From contig JAGXNQ010000003.1 in the NCBI GenBank assembly GCA_019894955.1, positions 1-48,210 on the forward strand: a stretch of DNA of 48,210 nt, written 5' to 3'. The stretch comes from Promethearchaeota archaeon. GTDB lineage: Archaea; Asgardarchaeota; Lokiarchaeia; Sigyniarchaeales; SOKP01. The translations under genes were made by a program, and so were the position numbers. The notes under the pieces were generated by a model, which was not told the origin of the DNA, did no database searches, and worked only from the letters and a program-made list of their open reading frames with translations. Shown in pieces: positions 5,395-21,652 of this stretch; the stretch's first letter is position 1, and the number at the start of each line of letters is the position of its first letter.

Positions 5395-6330
5395 TTACAA
5401 TAATGATAAAATTGTTTTAATTTGTTTTGCCCTACTTCTCAATGTGACTTCTGTTATCTTGGCCACATCGGCTACGTTTGATTGAGTTTTTCGAATACAA
5501 CCATCTTTAGCAGCGATATAAATACACGCTGCTGCCAAGCCTTTAGGATCTTTACCAGTACGTTTTAAACCATTTTGAGATGCCTTTCGAAGCATATCTA
5601 TTGCTATTTTTTGTATTTTCATTGGTAGGTCTAGTTCATTTCCGAAACGGAAGACTAAGCTTTCAGCGGTGATAGGTTGATACCTTAATCCTAACTGTGG
5701 TAACACTTCTCGGATTATCATTGCGAGACTACGGTGCACTGTTCGACGAGGTGTCATAGAAGCTTCACAAACCTCATCAAGTAATCGTGGAAAGTCGTGA
5801 ACTCTAATTGCAGCATATAATGATCCTGCAATAAAACCGTTAATGGATCTACCCATTGTTAGCTTTTTCTTGGCAACAATGCTATAGATTTTCCAGGCTG
5901 TCTCACTAATATATTCTGGAATGTTAAGTTTTGAGGTTAGCATTTTGAGTTTAGGTTTTGCTTCCCAGAAGTTCCGTTCAATGCTAGAAATTAATGAATT
6001 CTGAATTTTCGATAATCGCGAAAAGAGTGCCTGTTCCTTTGGACCAATTGATTTACCTTTAGAATCCGTTTTAGTACTTGGAAGCATTGTTCGTGGACCA
6101 AAGTCCCTCCATCTTGGTTCAGTGCGCCTTCTTGTTTGAATTTCTTCTATAGTATAAGCTCTACGTTCATTTCCAACAAAAGTTCTTTCCGAGATTATTC
6201 CACAGTTTAGACAAACGTTATTACCACCTCGTTCTTCAATAGCTGGATGATCACAACAATCATTTGTAGTAGGTGAATTCCCTTCATTAGGGTTTTTATT
6301 TTTGATGAGCTCTCGGTAGCTATTGTTCAT
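5395..6330 (-). CDS. tfb: Transcription initiation factor IIB (TFB)
   Basis: Zinc ribbon CCDHPAIEERGGNNVCLNCG, followed by a B-reader/linker (ERTFVGNERRAYT..RTEPRWRDFGPRT) and two cyclin repeats (RSINGFIAGSLYAAIRVHDFPRLLDEV; PKGLAAACIYIAAKDG). Confidence 0.9.
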   Translation of the reverse strand: MNNSYRELIKNKNPNEGNSPTTNDCCDHPAIEERGGNNVCLNCGIISERTFVGNERRAYTIEEIQTRRRTEPRWRDFGPRTMLPSTKTDSKGKSIGPKEQALFSRLSKIQNSLISSIERNFWEAKPKLKMLTSKLNIPEYISETAWKIYSIVAKKKLTMGRSINGFIAGSLYAAIRVHDFPRLLDEVCEASMTPRRTVHRSLAMIIREVLPQLGLRYQPITAESLVFRFGNELDLPMKIQKIAIDMLRKASQNGLKRTGKDPKGLAAACIYIAAKDGCIRKTQSNVADVAKITEVTLRSRAKQIKTILSLL

Positions 6331-6609
6331 GATATTTCACTTTGATTATAAATTCACAAATAATGAATTAAAGAGGATAAAATTGGCATTTTAAATTAAA
6401 AATAGTCATTATTATTTCTTTAATAACTGCTGTAAAGAATTAATTGATTAATCAGCTATTTAAATGTTTTCATGAAAATTTGAAAATTTAAAATTTTTTT
6501 ACACTTTTATCCCACTCTTTTCCCTTTAATATGATAAATTGTTCACAATTTTGTGATATTTGGAAAAAAATATTAGTTATTCTTCAAATTCATATTTAAT
6601 ATCTTAGAG

Positions 6610-17846: not shown

Positions 17847-18146
17847 TTACGAGCTAATGAGTTGGAATAGTATCGAGGCGTGAGGTATAAAGAATTGGTC
17901 GCCTTTCTTAATAACCACAGTGTGGAAATATTCAGCGAGTCCAAGAAATCCTCTAATAACCGACTCATCTTCTTCAAATTTGAAGATTAGCTTAGCAATA
18001 GCAGCATTTGTATTAAAATTGACTTTATCATATACACGTTCGTCAATCAGGGGGATCTTGAGCTCATTTACGATTTCATAAACACGTTTTTCACAGGACT
18101 AACTAAGTGTTAGTAGACCTATTATGAAGAGCTCTCTCTTTGGCAT
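17847..18146 (-). pseudogene. Small ORF (about 99 codons) interrupted by an in-frame TAG at codon 16
   Basis: My translation: ATG(18146) MPKRELFIIGLLTLS-TAG(18101-18099)-SCEKRVYEIVNELKIPLIDERVYDKVNFNTNAAIAKLIFKFEEDESVIRGFLGLAEYFHTVVIKKGDQFFIPHASILFQLISS-TAA(17849-17847). For the first ~64 codons after the TAG the frame has no ATG, GTG or TTG (first is GTG in ..HTVV..), so the downstream part has no start near its 5' end. Confidence 0.4.
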
Positions 18147-18453
18147 ATTTTCTTAATCACCTAATAATAATGTTCTTTTAAAATTTAAGTATCTAAATAT
18201 AATAATAATAATATATTGCTGTCTTTTATAATTGTTGTCTTTTATGATGACAACCTACTTTAAGGTTCAAAATGCGATAGAATCGATCTTTCATTAAAAA
18301 GATAGATGATCGGAATTGCTCTTGTACTGTGATTAAAGGATTAAAACATGCAAAAAATATAATCTTATAAATGAAAATTTATATAATACCATTAAGATTA
18401 TAATTTATATAATAAACTACTTATAAGTACTTAAAACCTTAGAGGATTGAATC

Positions 18454-19173
18454 TTGGTTCCTAAAGAACAAAAAAAGGTAGAACGCGTCATCAATTTCAT
18501 GAAAAAGGGATTACAATCATTATCGGATGATCTTGAAGACACTGTAAAGGGGTTAAATGATTTCATTCAATCATTGAATAAAGCTTTAAAAGATTTAAAG
18601 GAAGTTGAAGTTGCACCACAGGCTCACACAGTTAGCACTTCCTCTAAAAAGGTAATTGGAACAGCACCGGTTCAGGCAAAAACCGCAGCTGCAAGCACAC
18701 TATTTAATTTATTAAGCGGTGGTGCATCACCAGTTCCTTCCGCTCCTACTACAGCTCCGAGTTTGCCTGCGGTCCCTACTGTGGCAGCGGCTGGTCCGCC
18801 TAAAGCAGGTGGACCTCCAAAAAGACCACTGGGTGGAAGTGGTCCGCCTAAAGCTCCCGCGGTGTCAGCTGGACCCCCTAAAGCTCCTGTTGCAAAATCT
18901 GGACCTCCAGCACGATCTAATTTACCTCCTGCTCCAAAATTACCTCCAACCCCTGGAAGTGGTCCGCCAGTAGCTCCTGGTGGAACAACAGTTCAAACAC
19001 CTTCATTTGCGAAAAGACCTGGTCCACCCGCCGCTCCTGCAGCTGCACCCTCTGGACCTCCTGGTAGAGCTAATACTCCAGCAGCCCCTCAAGCAGGCGG
19101 CGGATTAAGTTCCCTTCGAGACGAGATGTTGGAAGAGTTAAATAGATTAAAGAAGATCATGCGTGGAGAATAA
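18454..19173 (+). CDS. Proline/alanine/glycine-rich low-complexity protein with helical N- and C-termini
   Basis: The helical N-terminus (LQSLSDDLEDTVKGLNDFIQSLNKALKDLKE) is followed by about 130 aa of GPPKAP-like repeats (8 GPP units). The C-terminus is an amphipathic helix, LSSLRDEMLEELNRLKKIMRGE. TTG start at 18454, preceded by GAGG; alternative ATG at 18499. Confidence 0.7.
   Translation: MVPKEQKKVERVINFMKKGLQSLSDDLEDTVKGLNDFIQSLNKALKDLKEVEVAPQAHTVSTSSKKVIGTAPVQAKTAAASTLFNLLSGGASPVPSAPTTAPSLPAVPTVAAAGPPKAGGPPKRPLGGSGPPKAPAVSAGPPKAPVAKSGPPARSNLPPAPKLPPTPGSGPPVAPGGTTVQTPSFAKRPGPPAAPAAAPSGPPGRANTPAAPQAGGGLSSLRDEMLEELNRLKKIMRGE
18793..19062 (+). repeat. Imperfect in-frame tandem repeats encoding GPP(K/V/A)AP units; local G+C-rich island
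   Basis: The recurring DNA unit ggtccgcctaaagc / ggacc(c/t)cc(t/a)aaagc occurs in frame. The line 18781-18840 counts by hand to 36/60 G+C, against 7/60 for 18361-18420. Confidence 0.7.
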
Positions 19174-19263
19174 ATTCTCAGATTTCTTTTTAAGTTGATT
19201 TTTCTATTTTTATATTTCTGTTAAATATAAATCTTTATTATCTTAGATTAAAATTATTATTTC

Positions 19264-20010
19264 ATGAACGATCATCAACACTTAATTAGTGATATTGATG
19301 TTCCTATTGTGATTCCAAAAAGAATAATGGTTTTCGCTGGGCACCCAGATGACGAAATAATTTCTTGTGGAGGAACACTTCTTAAATATCAAGAATTAGG
19401 ATCAAAAATAATAGTTGTAGTTTCTACTAGTGGTTTAGGAGGGTATGCAAAAGAATCACAGAAAAGTGAGATTATGAAACAGCGACATGAAGAATTAATT
19501 CAAGTAAAGAAAGCATTAAAGTGTGAAATTATAGAACTAAATTTCGAAAATATGGAGATTACACGGCAAAAAATATCCACACTTACAAATTTGATCAGGG
19601 ATCATCAACCTCAAGTTATTTTAATACCCCATTTTTCAGATTTTCATAGAGTTCATAGAAATCTTTCATTAATTACGCGTGAAGCCATATATCATTGCTC
19701 TTCTGGAAAAGCATATGGAGGTCATGAAAAAAAATGGATGCCCTTTGGAGTTTATTACTATGAATCGCCATCATGTAAGTTTCAATATGTTGATGGATCT
19801 GTATTCATAATTGTGAACATAGAAAATTATTGGGATCGTAAAAAAACCATTTTTAATGAAGTTTATGCTTCACAAAAAGAGGTATTAGGACGTATACTTG
19901 ATTGGGCAAAGGATACAGCAATTTTACGTGGAAATGAAATAAATTCCTCGTTTGGTGAGGCCTATATACCTGAAACGACATATACACCTTTAAAATTACT
20001 TTTAGTATAA
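19264..20010 (+). CDS. PIG-L / LmbE family N-acetylglucosaminyl deacetylase
   Basis: VFAGHPDDEIISCGGTLLKY (the AHPDDE signature) plus downstream HxDH-like HFSDFHRVH. Confidence 0.8.
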   Translation: MNDHQHLISDIDVPIVIPKRIMVFAGHPDDEIISCGGTLLKYQELGSKIIVVVSTSGLGGYAKESQKSEIMKQRHEELIQVKKALKCEIIELNFENMEITRQKISTLTNLIRDHQPQVILIPHFSDFHRVHRNLSLITREAIYHCSSGKAYGGHEKKWMPFGVYYYESPSCKFQYVDGSVFIIVNIENYWDRKKTIFNEVYASQKEVLGRILDWAKDTAILRGNEINSSFGEAYIPETTYTPLKLLLV

Positions 20011-20070: not shown

Positions 20071-21183
20071 ATGGGAAATCTAACAGTAGTTTTAGATATT
20101 GGTCAATTTTCATCAAAGGTCGGTTTTGCTGGAGAAGATTTTCCGTCCCAAGTATTTTTTACAATAGTTGGTAAGCCAAAATATCAACAAATTGATTTTG
20201 ATTATGGTAAATCTAAAGATGAGTTTTACGTTGGTGATGAGATCCAATCCTTGGGATTATACAAGATTAAATACCCAATTGAAAAGGGTATAATTCAAGA
20301 TTGGGTTTCTTTTGAAAAAATCATGGACTATATTTTTTATAACCTCCGCGTAGATCCAAGTTTAGTAAACGTTTTATTTGCGGTACATCCCTTGTTTCCC
20401 CGTAAAGATTTAATCAGATTGTTCCAATTATTTTTAGAACAGTATCAGTGTAATGCATTTTATCCCGTTCTTGATTCCATGTTAACACTCTATGCTGGGG
20501 GATTTCAAACTGGTTTAGTTATAGAAATCGGAGATAGCATAACTCGAATTGTACCTATTTATGAAGGATATAAGCTTGATCATGCAATTCGTATTTTGGA
20601 CATTGGAGGTAGGACACTAACGAGATACATGGAAAAAATTCTGGGAGAAATCGGTTTTTCAGCAGATTCCTCAATTAGAAGAGAATTGGTCAGAGCTCTT
20701 AAAGAAAAAGCTTGTTTTGTATCTTTAGATTATAAAGAAGATCTTAAGAGGATTGAACAATATGAAAAGTCTTATTCTTTACCAGATGGTTCAACAATAA
20801 GATTAGATAAAGAAAGATTTCAAGTTCCTGAACTTTTATTTGATCCTTCAATCGAATTAGAAGAAGATCCATTACCTCAAGCAATTTTAGATGTAATTGA
20901 GAATTGCGATTTAGATATCAGACCAGAGTTATTAAATAATATTTTTCTATCAGGAGGATCTTCGATGTTTCCTAACATTAAATCGAGAATTTATCAAGAA
21001 TTAGAACTAGAACTGGCTAGAAGGAAGAAAAAAAATCAATCAATAAAAATAATAGCCCCTAGTGAACGTACATTCTCTGTATGGGTAGGAGGATCAATTC
21101 TAGCACTGATTCCAGAATTTTCGAAAAATTGGATTACTCGAACTCAATATTTTAATGAAGGTATTCCTGACAATCTTTTATGA
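20071..21183 (+). CDS. Actin-family protein (divergent actin / Arp-like)
   Basis: Actin motifs are colinear. Phosphate-1 is VVLDIGQFSSKVGFAGEDFP. Next come YVGDEIQS..IKYPIEKGIIQDW. Phosphate-2 is GLVIEIGDSITRIVPIYEGY and connect-1 is ILDIGGRTLTRYM. SYSLPDGSTI follows. The adenosine motif is IFLSGGSSMFPNIKSRI, then SVWVGGSILA. Confidence 0.9.
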   Translation: MGNLTVVLDIGQFSSKVGFAGEDFPSQVFFTIVGKPKYQQIDFDYGKSKDEFYVGDEIQSLGLYKIKYPIEKGIIQDWVSFEKIMDYIFYNLRVDPSLVNVLFAVHPLFPRKDLIRLFQLFLEQYQCNAFYPVLDSMLTLYAGGFQTGLVIEIGDSITRIVPIYEGYKLDHAIRILDIGGRTLTRYMEKILGEIGFSADSSIRRELVRALKEKACFVSLDYKEDLKRIEQYEKSYSLPDGSTIRLDKERFQVPELLFDPSIELEEDPLPQAILDVIENCDLDIRPELLNNIFLSGGSSMFPNIKSRIYQELELELARRKKKNQSIKIIAPSERTFSVWVGGSILALIPEFSKNWITRTQYFNEGIPDNLL

Positions 21184-21289: not shown

Positions 21290-21652
21290 ATGGAAAATTT
21301 AAACGAACGTTTTGAACAATCTAAATTATTGAAAAAATACTATAAGCCGGATTTCTCCCAATTATTTAATAAAATTAAAGATATCAAAGCCCCAGTGAAA
21401 AGAGAAATATTAATGGGGCTTCTAGACGGAAATTGGCATTCAGAATTAGATTTGATCAGATTAGCTAAAAAAAAACAGCAGTATATGGGAGCTGTCACCC
21501 TCGGAACGATGGTTATTTCGTTAAATAACTCATTAAAAAATGATTATGTTGACCGAAAAATAATTGATGATAAAATGTATTATAAAATATCTGATAATTA
21601 TGTAGGACTAACGAGAGCAGCATATAACAAGTTTAAATATAATGTGGATTAA
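21290..21652 (+). CDS. Small putative winged-helix protein
   Basis: 120 aa. REILMGLLDGNWHSELDLIRLAKKKQQYMGAVTLGTMVISLNNSLKNDYVDRKIIDDKMYYKISD resembles an ArsR-like wHTH. Weak call. Confidence 0.45.
   Translation: MENLNERFEQSKLLKKYYKPDFSQLFNKIKDIKAPVKREILMGLLDGNWHSELDLIRLAKKKQQYMGAVTLGTMVISLNNSLKNDYVDRKIIDDKMYYKISDNYVGLTRAAYNKFKYNVD

Follow-up and report, generated by a model that had tools for sequence, protein, structure and literature searches.

The proline-rich protein described here, designated PRO, is encoded on the forward strand of a 48,210-nt stretch of DNA (contig JAGXNQ010000003.1 of assembly GCA_019894955.1, positions 1 to 48,210), hereafter the window, which derives from a Promethearchaeota archaeon of the Lokiarchaeia lineage SOKP01. 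An original prediction, made from this DNA without database searches, had proposed that the product is an actin-cytoskeleton regulator or linker, given an actin homologue encoded downstream. Its description of the protein is fully borne out: a 239-amino acid (aa) open reading frame (ORF) at 18454 to 19173 with a helical N-terminus, modelled by AlphaFold2 (AF2) as a helix at residues 4–51, a Pro/Ala/Gly-rich core containing eight GPP units, all of the hexamers being exactly as listed, no run of more than two prolines, PPP being absent from the window protein, and the C-terminal sequence LSSLRDEMLEELNRLKKIMRGE, modelled as a helix at residues 218–236. Conservation was assessed across 80 species-level orthologue loci, mean pairwise identity being computed over 81 sequences. 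The elements of the gene and its product are as follows.

18442 to 18446, + strand: Shine-Dalgarno-like GAGGA, 7 nt 5' of the TTG start, as read from the sequence
18454 to 19173, + strand: PRO coding sequence, 239 aa, 23.9 kDa, isoelectric point (pI) 10.2, TTG start; identified by the ORF, full-length homologues and genome-like G+C at third codon positions (GC3)
18463 to 18606, + strand: N-terminal long helix, a canonical heptad coiled coil, residues 4–51, AF2 predicted local distance difference test (pLDDT) about 81–94
18628 to 18651, + strand: TVSTSSKK motif, residues 59–66, TVS[ST]SSK in 69/80 orthologues, columns invariant in alignment A1
18673 to 18720, + strand: short conserved helix AKTAAASTLFNLLSG, residues 74–89, family consensus AAxxLxxLLxG
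18721 to 19095, + strand: disordered Pro/Ala/Gly-rich core, residues 90–214, acid-free, Lys/Arg-bearing, net charge +11, with the eight GPP units; corresponds to the G+C island
18922 to 18948, + strand: fixed motif LPPAPKLPP, residues 157–165, in 74/80 orthologues, identity 0.91 over residues 156–165
19000 to 19020, + strand: fixed motif PSFAKRP, residues 183–189, P[STA]F[AVT]KR in 66/80 orthologues, columns invariant or near-invariant
19096 to 19170, + strand: C-terminal module GGGLSSLRDEMLEELNRLKKIMRGE, residues 215–239, amphipathic helix 218–236, AF2 pLDDT >90
19174 to 19263, + strand: AT- and T-rich spacer between PRO and the following PIG-L gene, with T runs 3' of the stop codon, as read from the sequence

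The TTG at 18454 is preferred as the start over the ATG at 18499 because residues 1–15 are conserved at the protein level among orthologues, GTG or TTG serving as the start codon in some of them. The GPP hexamers begin at residues 114, 120, 130, 140, 150, 170, 190 and 201 and greatly exceed the number expected from composition, shuffled cores containing 1.44 ± 1.08 GPP compared with the real eight, a value reached in 0 of 20,000 composition-preserving shuffles. The idea that the repeats arose by recent slippage of DNA was rejected, as a tandem repeat at the DNA level was not found. The G+C island noted originally (36/60 within 18781–18840) is the only one in the window, 18595–19181 being the sole part in which G+C over 200 nt reaches 0.5 relative to a window mean of 0.297. 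Within the core, G+C is 0.73 and 0.82 at first and second codon positions and 0.18 at the third, and GC3 of the neighbouring genes is 0.19–0.20. Because GC3 equals that of its neighbours, PRO is a native gene whose G+C island is compositional in origin, resulting from Pro, Ala and Gly codons. Horizontal transfer as the source of the island is ruled out by the same genome-typical GC3, synonymous sites not being atypical. The T-rich spacer that follows suggests, as far as sequence can indicate, that PRO forms its own transcription unit, a reading also indicated by the lack of the PIG-L gene in 28/80 loci and the insertion of other genes at this position in several loci.

AF2 places helices at residues 4–51, 74–87 and 218–236, the remainder of PRO being disordered. 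In the N-terminal helix, 12 of 14 a/d positions are hydrophobic across seven heptads, mean pairwise identity is 0.83 (residues 16–50) and a PDB search with the family profile hits designed antiparallel coiled coils (8qae, E = 2.5e-8); this coiled coil is presumed to be an oligomerisation or anchoring module. The short second helix is modelled at low confidence, although its identity is high (0.89 over residues 75–89) and it is kept in distant relatives. The core consists largely of proline (38), alanine (26) and glycine (16 of 125 residues), has a pLDDT below 65 and behaves as a variable spacer, ranging across the 80 orthologues from 94 to 158 residues with 1–12 GPP units and 7–19 Lys plus Arg, and with a pairwise identity of just 0.51–0.55 over residues 90–155 and 166–214. 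Its lack of acidic residues is nonetheless maintained, Asp plus Glu being zero in 51/80 and no more than one in 70/80 orthologues. The first of the two fixed motifs set within the spacer, LPPAPKLPP, is replaced by LPPPPKLPP in some distant relatives. Conservation is greatest at the C-terminus, where the 25-residue pattern GGGL[SG]SLRDEML[ED]ELNRLKKIMRG[ED] is found in 74/80 orthologues with a mean pairwise identity of 0.95, and this module is presumed to be the main partner-binding site. PRO is thus under purifying selection, with conservation focused in five short elements split by a variable proline-rich spacer.

A search for orthologues, proposed as a check on the original prediction, identified a large conserved family. 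PRO is encoded in 114 GTDB species-representative genomes, almost every Lokiarchaeia-type genome in the sample having it, with full-length homologues at 45–85% identity; homologues fall into more than 200 clusters at 90% identity, all unnamed or 'hypothetical' and none with a Pfam domain. More distant full-length relatives (30–48% identity) retain the same architecture. Record titles refer nearly all of these to Asgard ('Promethearchaeota') or unclassified-archaeon metagenome-assembled genomes (MAGs), with a bacterial MAG label on one locus (L013). Among 1.84 billion representative proteins, a profile search returned 48 matches, consisting of PRO homologues or fragments and a few tail-helix proteins, of which those labelled or located are Asgard; no named eukaryotic or bacterial family relative was seen in this search. 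Pfam, NCBIfam and PDB searches with whole PRO, its termini and the family profile gave generic coiled-coil matches only, and a literature search did not find a paper describing the family. PRO therefore represents an Asgard-specific, previously unannotated family. MAG class labels (Thor, Odin, Hod, Hermod) were left unused in assessing spread across Asgard classes because near-identical loci, judged by gene order and identity to the window, differ in label. Such conflicts in NCBI class labels (Thor, Hod, Odin, Hermod, Promethearchaeia) involve L037 and L058, as well as L011, L018, L022, L027 and L072. In addition, one family member of 549 aa (P0123) begins with a membrane helix and has a TIR domain (PF13676, 6e-18) at its C-terminus, and is a putative fusion or miscalled gene.

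The C-terminal helix is not confined to PRO. The motif [LI]R.EM..EL..L[KR].IM.G occurs in no other ORF of the window or the 80 related loci, nor elsewhere in a set of 733 background ORFs; two to three copies in tandem are present, however, in the proteins of a small Asgard family, whose 13 clusters bear the labels Hodarchaeota, Sigynarchaeota and Promethearchaeia. In this family, the tandem helices are followed by a CxxC...CCxC zinc-type module and then by a longin-fold domain, assigned by Foldseek matches to VAMP7, Ykt6 and Sec22 (E about 1e-4, target-normalised TM-score 0.56–0.69), onto which AF2 does not pack the helices. A further protein, P0154, has a Ras/Roc GTPase domain and two copies of the helix flanking a PPPPP-containing linker. 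Thus, the C-terminal helix is a portable module common to PRO and Asgard longin- and Ras-type proteins. Tail-helix family members are P0154, P0157, P0159, P0162, P0165 and P0200–P0203, together with L087 (6001–7065) and L088 (957–2006).

Downstream of PRO, three genes follow on the same strand.

19264 to 20010, + strand: PIG-L/LmbE-type deacetylase gene, Pfam PIG-L 1.8e-22, not always present between PRO and the actin-family gene
20071 to 21183, + strand: actin-family gene, 370 aa, pI 5.0, Pfam Actin 4e-89
21290 to 21652, + strand: 120-aa gene 3' of the actin-family gene, in 75/80 loci

The actin homologue was therefore correctly located by the original prediction. Across the 80 loci, the order on one strand is PRO, optional PIG-L, actin-family gene and 120-aa gene. 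The actin-family gene is present in 76 loci, lying directly after PRO in about 28, and PIG-L in 52; the interval between PRO and the actin-family gene takes other insertions in several genomes, for example a 1312-aa gene in L089. Genes for topoisomerase IA (71 loci) and a PAS histidine kinase (62 loci) sit on the strand opposite PRO, while MgtE (the MgtEa copy) lies upstream in 31, and a block of roughly 15 kb around PRO is syntenic as a whole. PRO-to-actin order persists in a diverged clade whose actin-family gene is 59–63% identical to the window copy. The proposed linkage to cytoskeletal genes is thus upheld in part, being further reflected in a gelsolin gene 3 kb from PRO in one distant lineage which lacks an adjacent actin gene; it does not extend to every lineage, as discussed below. 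Searches of Pfam, the PDB and NCBIfam assign the 120-aa gene to no family, the one faint resemblance being MarR/FabT-like (E = 0.02); its product may be a small winged-helix protein.

The actin-family neighbour is 72–95% conserved among related genomes and 45% identical both to eukaryotic actin and to HC1 actin (PDB 9wc4). Lokiactin, by comparison, is reported to be 58% identical to muscle actin (PMC12050087), and 'Lokiarchaeum' ossiferum encodes Lokiactin and three actin-related proteins (ARPs) (PMC9834061). As its identity to actin is about 45% rather than 58%, the neighbour is probably an ARP-like paralogue and not Lokiactin. In the L. ossiferum proteome, GNAMCCOK_01004 (41.9 kDa), the tag expected for the ARP UYP44711.1 by an assignment deduced from offsets, is listed at an abundance near that of Lokiactin (mean log2 21.46 and 21.69, respectively; bioRxiv 10.1101/2025.11.30.690169, Supplementary Table 2). 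Under the same offset-based assignment, GNAMCCOK_01004 is not enriched in the Lokiactin co-immunoprecipitation values of that preprint (log2 ratio −0.02; bioRxiv 10.1101/2025.11.30.690169). Tags 01001 and 01002, those expected for PRO, do not occur among the table rows consulted.

Upstream, the DNA contains a block conserved at 73–81% which encodes a gene absent from the ORF list, designated sp86.

17847 to 18146, − strand: sp86, small gene divergent from PRO, about 86 aa without its insert

Conservation of this block shows three-base periodicity (0.81/0.47/0.90), and this codon periodicity combined with the lack of an Rfam match identifies it as the sp86 gene; for the same reasons, a non-coding RNA encoded by the 270-nt conserved block was considered and rejected. 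The protein follows the pattern MPKRELFIKRVYEIVNELKIPLIDERVYDKV...FKFEEDESVIRGFLGLAEYFHTVVIKK.D.F.IPH.SILF. sp86 is found in 71/80 species loci, mostly 76–98% identical to the window copy, and in 127 loci overall. Its immediate adjacency to PRO takes three forms: the two genes diverge in the main clade, sp86 precedes PRO in tandem in L135, L146 and L150, and sp86 follows PRO in tandem in the P0137 lineage, in which an actin-family gene is not nearby. Wherever the flank suffices, sp86 adjoins PRO, with the exception of L147, L104 and the P0136- and P0143-type lineages; the ARP-like gene accompanies PRO in one large clade. Because adjacency is kept through three arrangements, the evidence for an association with PRO is stronger for sp86 than for actin. 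As the most constant neighbour of PRO, sp86 is a probable direct partner. The family has no Pfam or PDB match, and the proposal that sp86 is an SH3-like proline-binding domain gains no support from Pfam and PDB profile searches. It resembles a metal-site segment of YbeY at a level which is not significant (E = 0.43); the YbeY motif HGxLHLxGYDH supplies three metal-binding histidines, of which two are lost in sp86.

A tRNA-splicing endonuclease gene was also observed 1–6 kb from PRO in two distant lineages, P0137 (L081, L091, L093, L168) and P0136 (L084, L140), the order in one of these being EndA(−), PhoU_div(−), PRO(+), sp86(+) and a 202-aa gene. This proximity may be residual synteny.

Combined, these observations lead us to a preferred reading, for which we put the chances at about even, that PRO is a cytoplasmic, largely disordered, Asgard-specific multivalent scaffold or adaptor. 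The coiled coil would oligomerise PRO or anchor it in a complex, from which the extended proline-rich spacer would project multiple copies of LPPAPKLPP, PSFAKRP and the C-terminal helix; the fixed motifs and helix could then capture an extremely conserved partner in the manner of adaptors built from a disordered linker and a terminal peptide. Comparable designs are the FtsZ C-terminal tail, the ribosomal stalk proteins P1/L12 and the SSB tail, in which an oligomeric N-terminal module is joined through a flexible spacer of variable length to an invariant, partner-capturing terminal peptide. PRO differs from these in its unrelated sequence, its extra fixed internal motifs and its polycationic proline-rich spacer. 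With respect to the client, the actin-family cytoskeleton, either the downstream acidic ARP-like protein or Lokiactin, is the leading candidate, though we advance it only tentatively; a role in actin biology is plausible by gene neighbourhood and resemblance.

Several results weigh against this reading and its extension to actin. AF2 does not pack the PRO helices on each other (predicted TM-score 0.21), so that oligomerisation is indicated by the heptad pattern alone. Synteny of the flanking genes for topoisomerase, histidine kinase and MgtE is comparable to that of the actin-family gene and, as these are unrelated genes, the PRO-actin linkage is not specific. Three distant PRO lineages (P0137, P0136 and P0143/P0163) have no actin-family gene within 1.4–6 kb. 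The link to sp86 provides no functional clue because the latter has no recognisable fold or family. Searches of Pfam, NCBIfam, the PDB and the 1.84 billion representative proteins revealed no sequence homology of PRO to known actin regulators. Finally, a published study reports weak binding of VASP polyproline by Heimdall and Thor profilins and none by Loki profilins (PMC8410842). The original proposal of an actin regulator or linker therefore stands in part: orthologues exist, linkage is observed in 76/80 loci and it extends to the diverged clade, and no signal peptide or membrane segment was detected, whereas the linkage is nonspecific and lost in distant lineages, the neighbour is probably ARP-like, the WH2 profile gives no hit and the strict WH2 spacing is absent.

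A first alternative is that PRO is dedicated to actin assembly and comparable in function to Ena/VASP or WASP/WAVE. The coiled coil would gather multiple PRO chains, the GPPK repeats together with LPPAPKLPP would either draw in profilin-actin or attach to F-actin by charge, and the C-terminal helix would occupy the barbed-end cleft, in Lokiactin or in the ARP-like protein encoded nearby, much as a WH2 or C helix does. We regard this as possible but doubtful. It accords with the position of PRO on the same strand 5' of the actin-family gene, with the pairing of a basic PRO (pI 10.2) with an acidic actin-family protein (pI 5.0), and with an architecture that joins a helix for oligomerisation to a Pro-rich tract and a final amphipathic helix, the last of these ending in LKKI and being so nearly invariant as to fit a partner as conserved as actin. 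As in the WH2 proteins WASP/WAVE/WIP and thymosin beta-4, a Pro-rich tract precedes an amphipathic helix of the form R-x-x-hydrophobic-hydrophobic-x-x-hydrophobic and LKK[IV], and, as read from the sequence, R222-x-x-M-L-x-x-L of PRO reproduces the WH2 helix pattern RxxLLxxI. The tandem helices of P0154, parted by a PPPPP-containing linker, likewise recall tandem-WH2 proteins, and the long starting helix recalls that of WAVE, which assembles into a bundle. In contrast, the WH2 profile (PF02205) does not match full-length PRO, nor its C-terminal peptides at E <= 10, the PDB search with PRO retrieved no actin-binding peptide, and the strict WH2 pattern, in which the LLxxI helix is followed by a short, non-helical, usually Gly-containing linker and LKKV/T, is absent. 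LKKI of PRO lies instead within one continuous AF2 helix, 218–236, three residues earlier than in WH2, in agreement with the reservation about spacing made originally, and PRO lacks the Gly-containing break and the acidic or Trp tail of WH2 proteins. A permissive ELM-type WH2 expression matches PRO 218–235 but also 347 of the 733 background ORFs (47%; 2.3 per 1000 aa) and is uninformative.

Likeness to Ena/VASP is similarly incomplete. Both have an oligomerising coiled coil, in PRO the predicted heptad coiled coil at 4–51, a central Gly/Pro-rich tract, an overall basic charge, and conserved amphipathic helices that are short and bordered by basic residues and runs of Gly. The PRO segment GGGLSSLRDEMLEELNRLKK presumably resembles the F-actin-binding segment of VASP, GGGGLMEEMNAMLARRRK, a resemblance which we treat as a lead and not as a test. 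However, the order is reversed, the coiled coil of PRO being N-terminal rather than C-terminal, and PRO is about half the size. An EVH1 domain was not found by Pfam, the N-terminus being a single coiled-coil helix, and HMMER comparison with Pfam, the PDB and the 1.84 billion representative proteins revealed no Ena/VASP homology. Poly-L-proline of the GPPPPP type (at least five Pro) is absent from PRO, with PPP present in just 9/80 and PPPP in 2/80 orthologues, a composition which, like the reported lack of polyproline binding by Loki profilins, the loss of actin linkage in distant lineages and the probable identity of the neighbour as other than Lokiactin, argues against assembly-factor function. 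A formin FH2 domain is also lacking by Pfam, the protein ending 25 residues past the Pro-rich region. That PRO truly assembles actin, as a pared-down archaeal counterpart of Ena/VASP or WASP, is rather unlikely. In such a case, a coiled-coil oligomer would feed actin or profilin-actin through the proline-rich repeats, the invariant C-terminal helix would engage Lokiactin or the neighbouring ARP-like protein, and reuse of the same helix in Asgard Ras- and longin-type proteins might couple membrane traffic to actin.

The remaining alternatives are less probable. PRO may be an adaptor of an Asgard membrane-trafficking and small-GTPase network, with the tail helix as a shared ligand or homotypic association helix, as suggested by the two to three copies of the helix in the zinc-module and longin family and its occurrence in the Ras/Roc-domain protein. 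We consider this unlikely, since the longin family is tiny (13 clusters) and derives in part from other Asgard lineages, AF2 leaves its helices unpacked on the longin domain, and trafficking genes do not adjoin PRO. It is improbable that PRO and sp86 act together in a housekeeping process, whether RNA-related or not, in which the disordered basic part of PRO would bind nucleic acid or ribosomes and sp86 would serve as the folded partner. Retention of sp86 as the sole neighbour through three rearrangements, the high pI and acid-free spacer of PRO, the nearby tRNA-splicing endonuclease genes and the faint likeness of sp86 to the YbeY metal site would be consistent with such a role; however, that likeness is not significant, with two of the three histidines missing, Pfam and NCBIfam searches detect no RNA-binding domain and the endonuclease genes may reflect residual synteny. 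The original prediction had also raised a MIT-interacting-type helix. In the version considered here, PRO would be a ligand of the MIT domain of Vps4 in the ESCRT system, its tail helix acting as MIM1 and LPPAPKLPP as MIM2. The tails of IST1 and ESCRT-III proteins, which carry MIM1 and MIM2, also place a terminal helix after a proline motif and a long Pro-rich linker and thereby recruit a hub domain. The PRO tail helix matches neither the strict nor a loosened form of the MIM1 consensus (D/E)xxLxxRLxxL(K/R), PRO has no ESCRT-III core and ESCRT genes are not found nearby. Although Asgard Vps4 recognises MIM1- and MIM2-like motifs (PMC7240154), this interpretation is therefore very improbable. 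Finally, an extracellular or surface low-complexity protein, likewise raised originally, or a spurious ORF would account for the Pro/Ala/Gly-rich composition, and is almost certainly incorrect. No signal peptide or membrane segment was detected in the 81 sequences, in which the maximal Kyte-Doolittle value over 19 residues is 0.75 for the window protein and no higher than 1.27 for the 80 orthologues, a membrane helix occurring only in the fused variant P0123; in addition, the N-terminus of PRO is charged, the terminal helices are 83–95% identical and GC3 is native.

To our knowledge, the Asgard actin cytoskeleton is dynamic and its known regulators are profilins and gelsolins only, no nucleation or elongation factor having been found, and we know of no natural proline-rich ligand of Asgard profilins. 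The strong conservation of the PRO family, its lack of annotation and a construction resembling that of multivalent adaptors in eukaryotes make it a concrete candidate. Were PRO to function in filament assembly, it would be the first Asgard nucleation or elongation factor besides profilin and gelsolin. Irrespective of a role in actin biology, the PRO family defines an Asgard interaction helix that is portable, being present in longin- and Ras-type proteins as well, and PRO and sp86 constitute a conserved gene pair.

A further observation concerns the sp86 gene itself. In 15 of the 127 loci, that of the window among them, an insert of 30 or 33 nt containing an in-frame stop breaks its frame, always at one codon boundary, after codons M-x-K-R-E-L-F-I. 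The other loci bearing the insert are L001, L009, L032, L033, L050, L063, L065, L099, L102, L117, L148, L156, L157 and L161.

18090 to 18122, − strand: sp86 insert in the window, with an in-frame stop TAG at 18099–18101

The inserts comprise three sequence families, all of which fold alike, with a central 4-bp helix (UCAU with GUGA or GUGG) that has AAU and AAA bulges on its flanks, and the intron hairpin varies between families by compensatory changes. An extra helix between exon 1 and exon 2 forms in two of the three families and does not form in that of the window. Symmetric cleavage one nucleotide into each bulge would restore F-I-K-R-V exactly. The insert fits an archaeal bulge-helix-bulge intron in mRNA and is a candidate mini-intron. 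Archaeal mRNA introns of this type have so far been known for crenarchaeal cbf5 (PMC2738675); if spliced, the sp86 insert would represent a rare case of archaeal pre-mRNA splicing outside this gene. A second stop-containing insert of 30 nt was observed at a different sp86 codon in L006, at about 6290–6530 on the − strand (IPL|LN*IGVISAE|IDERVY).

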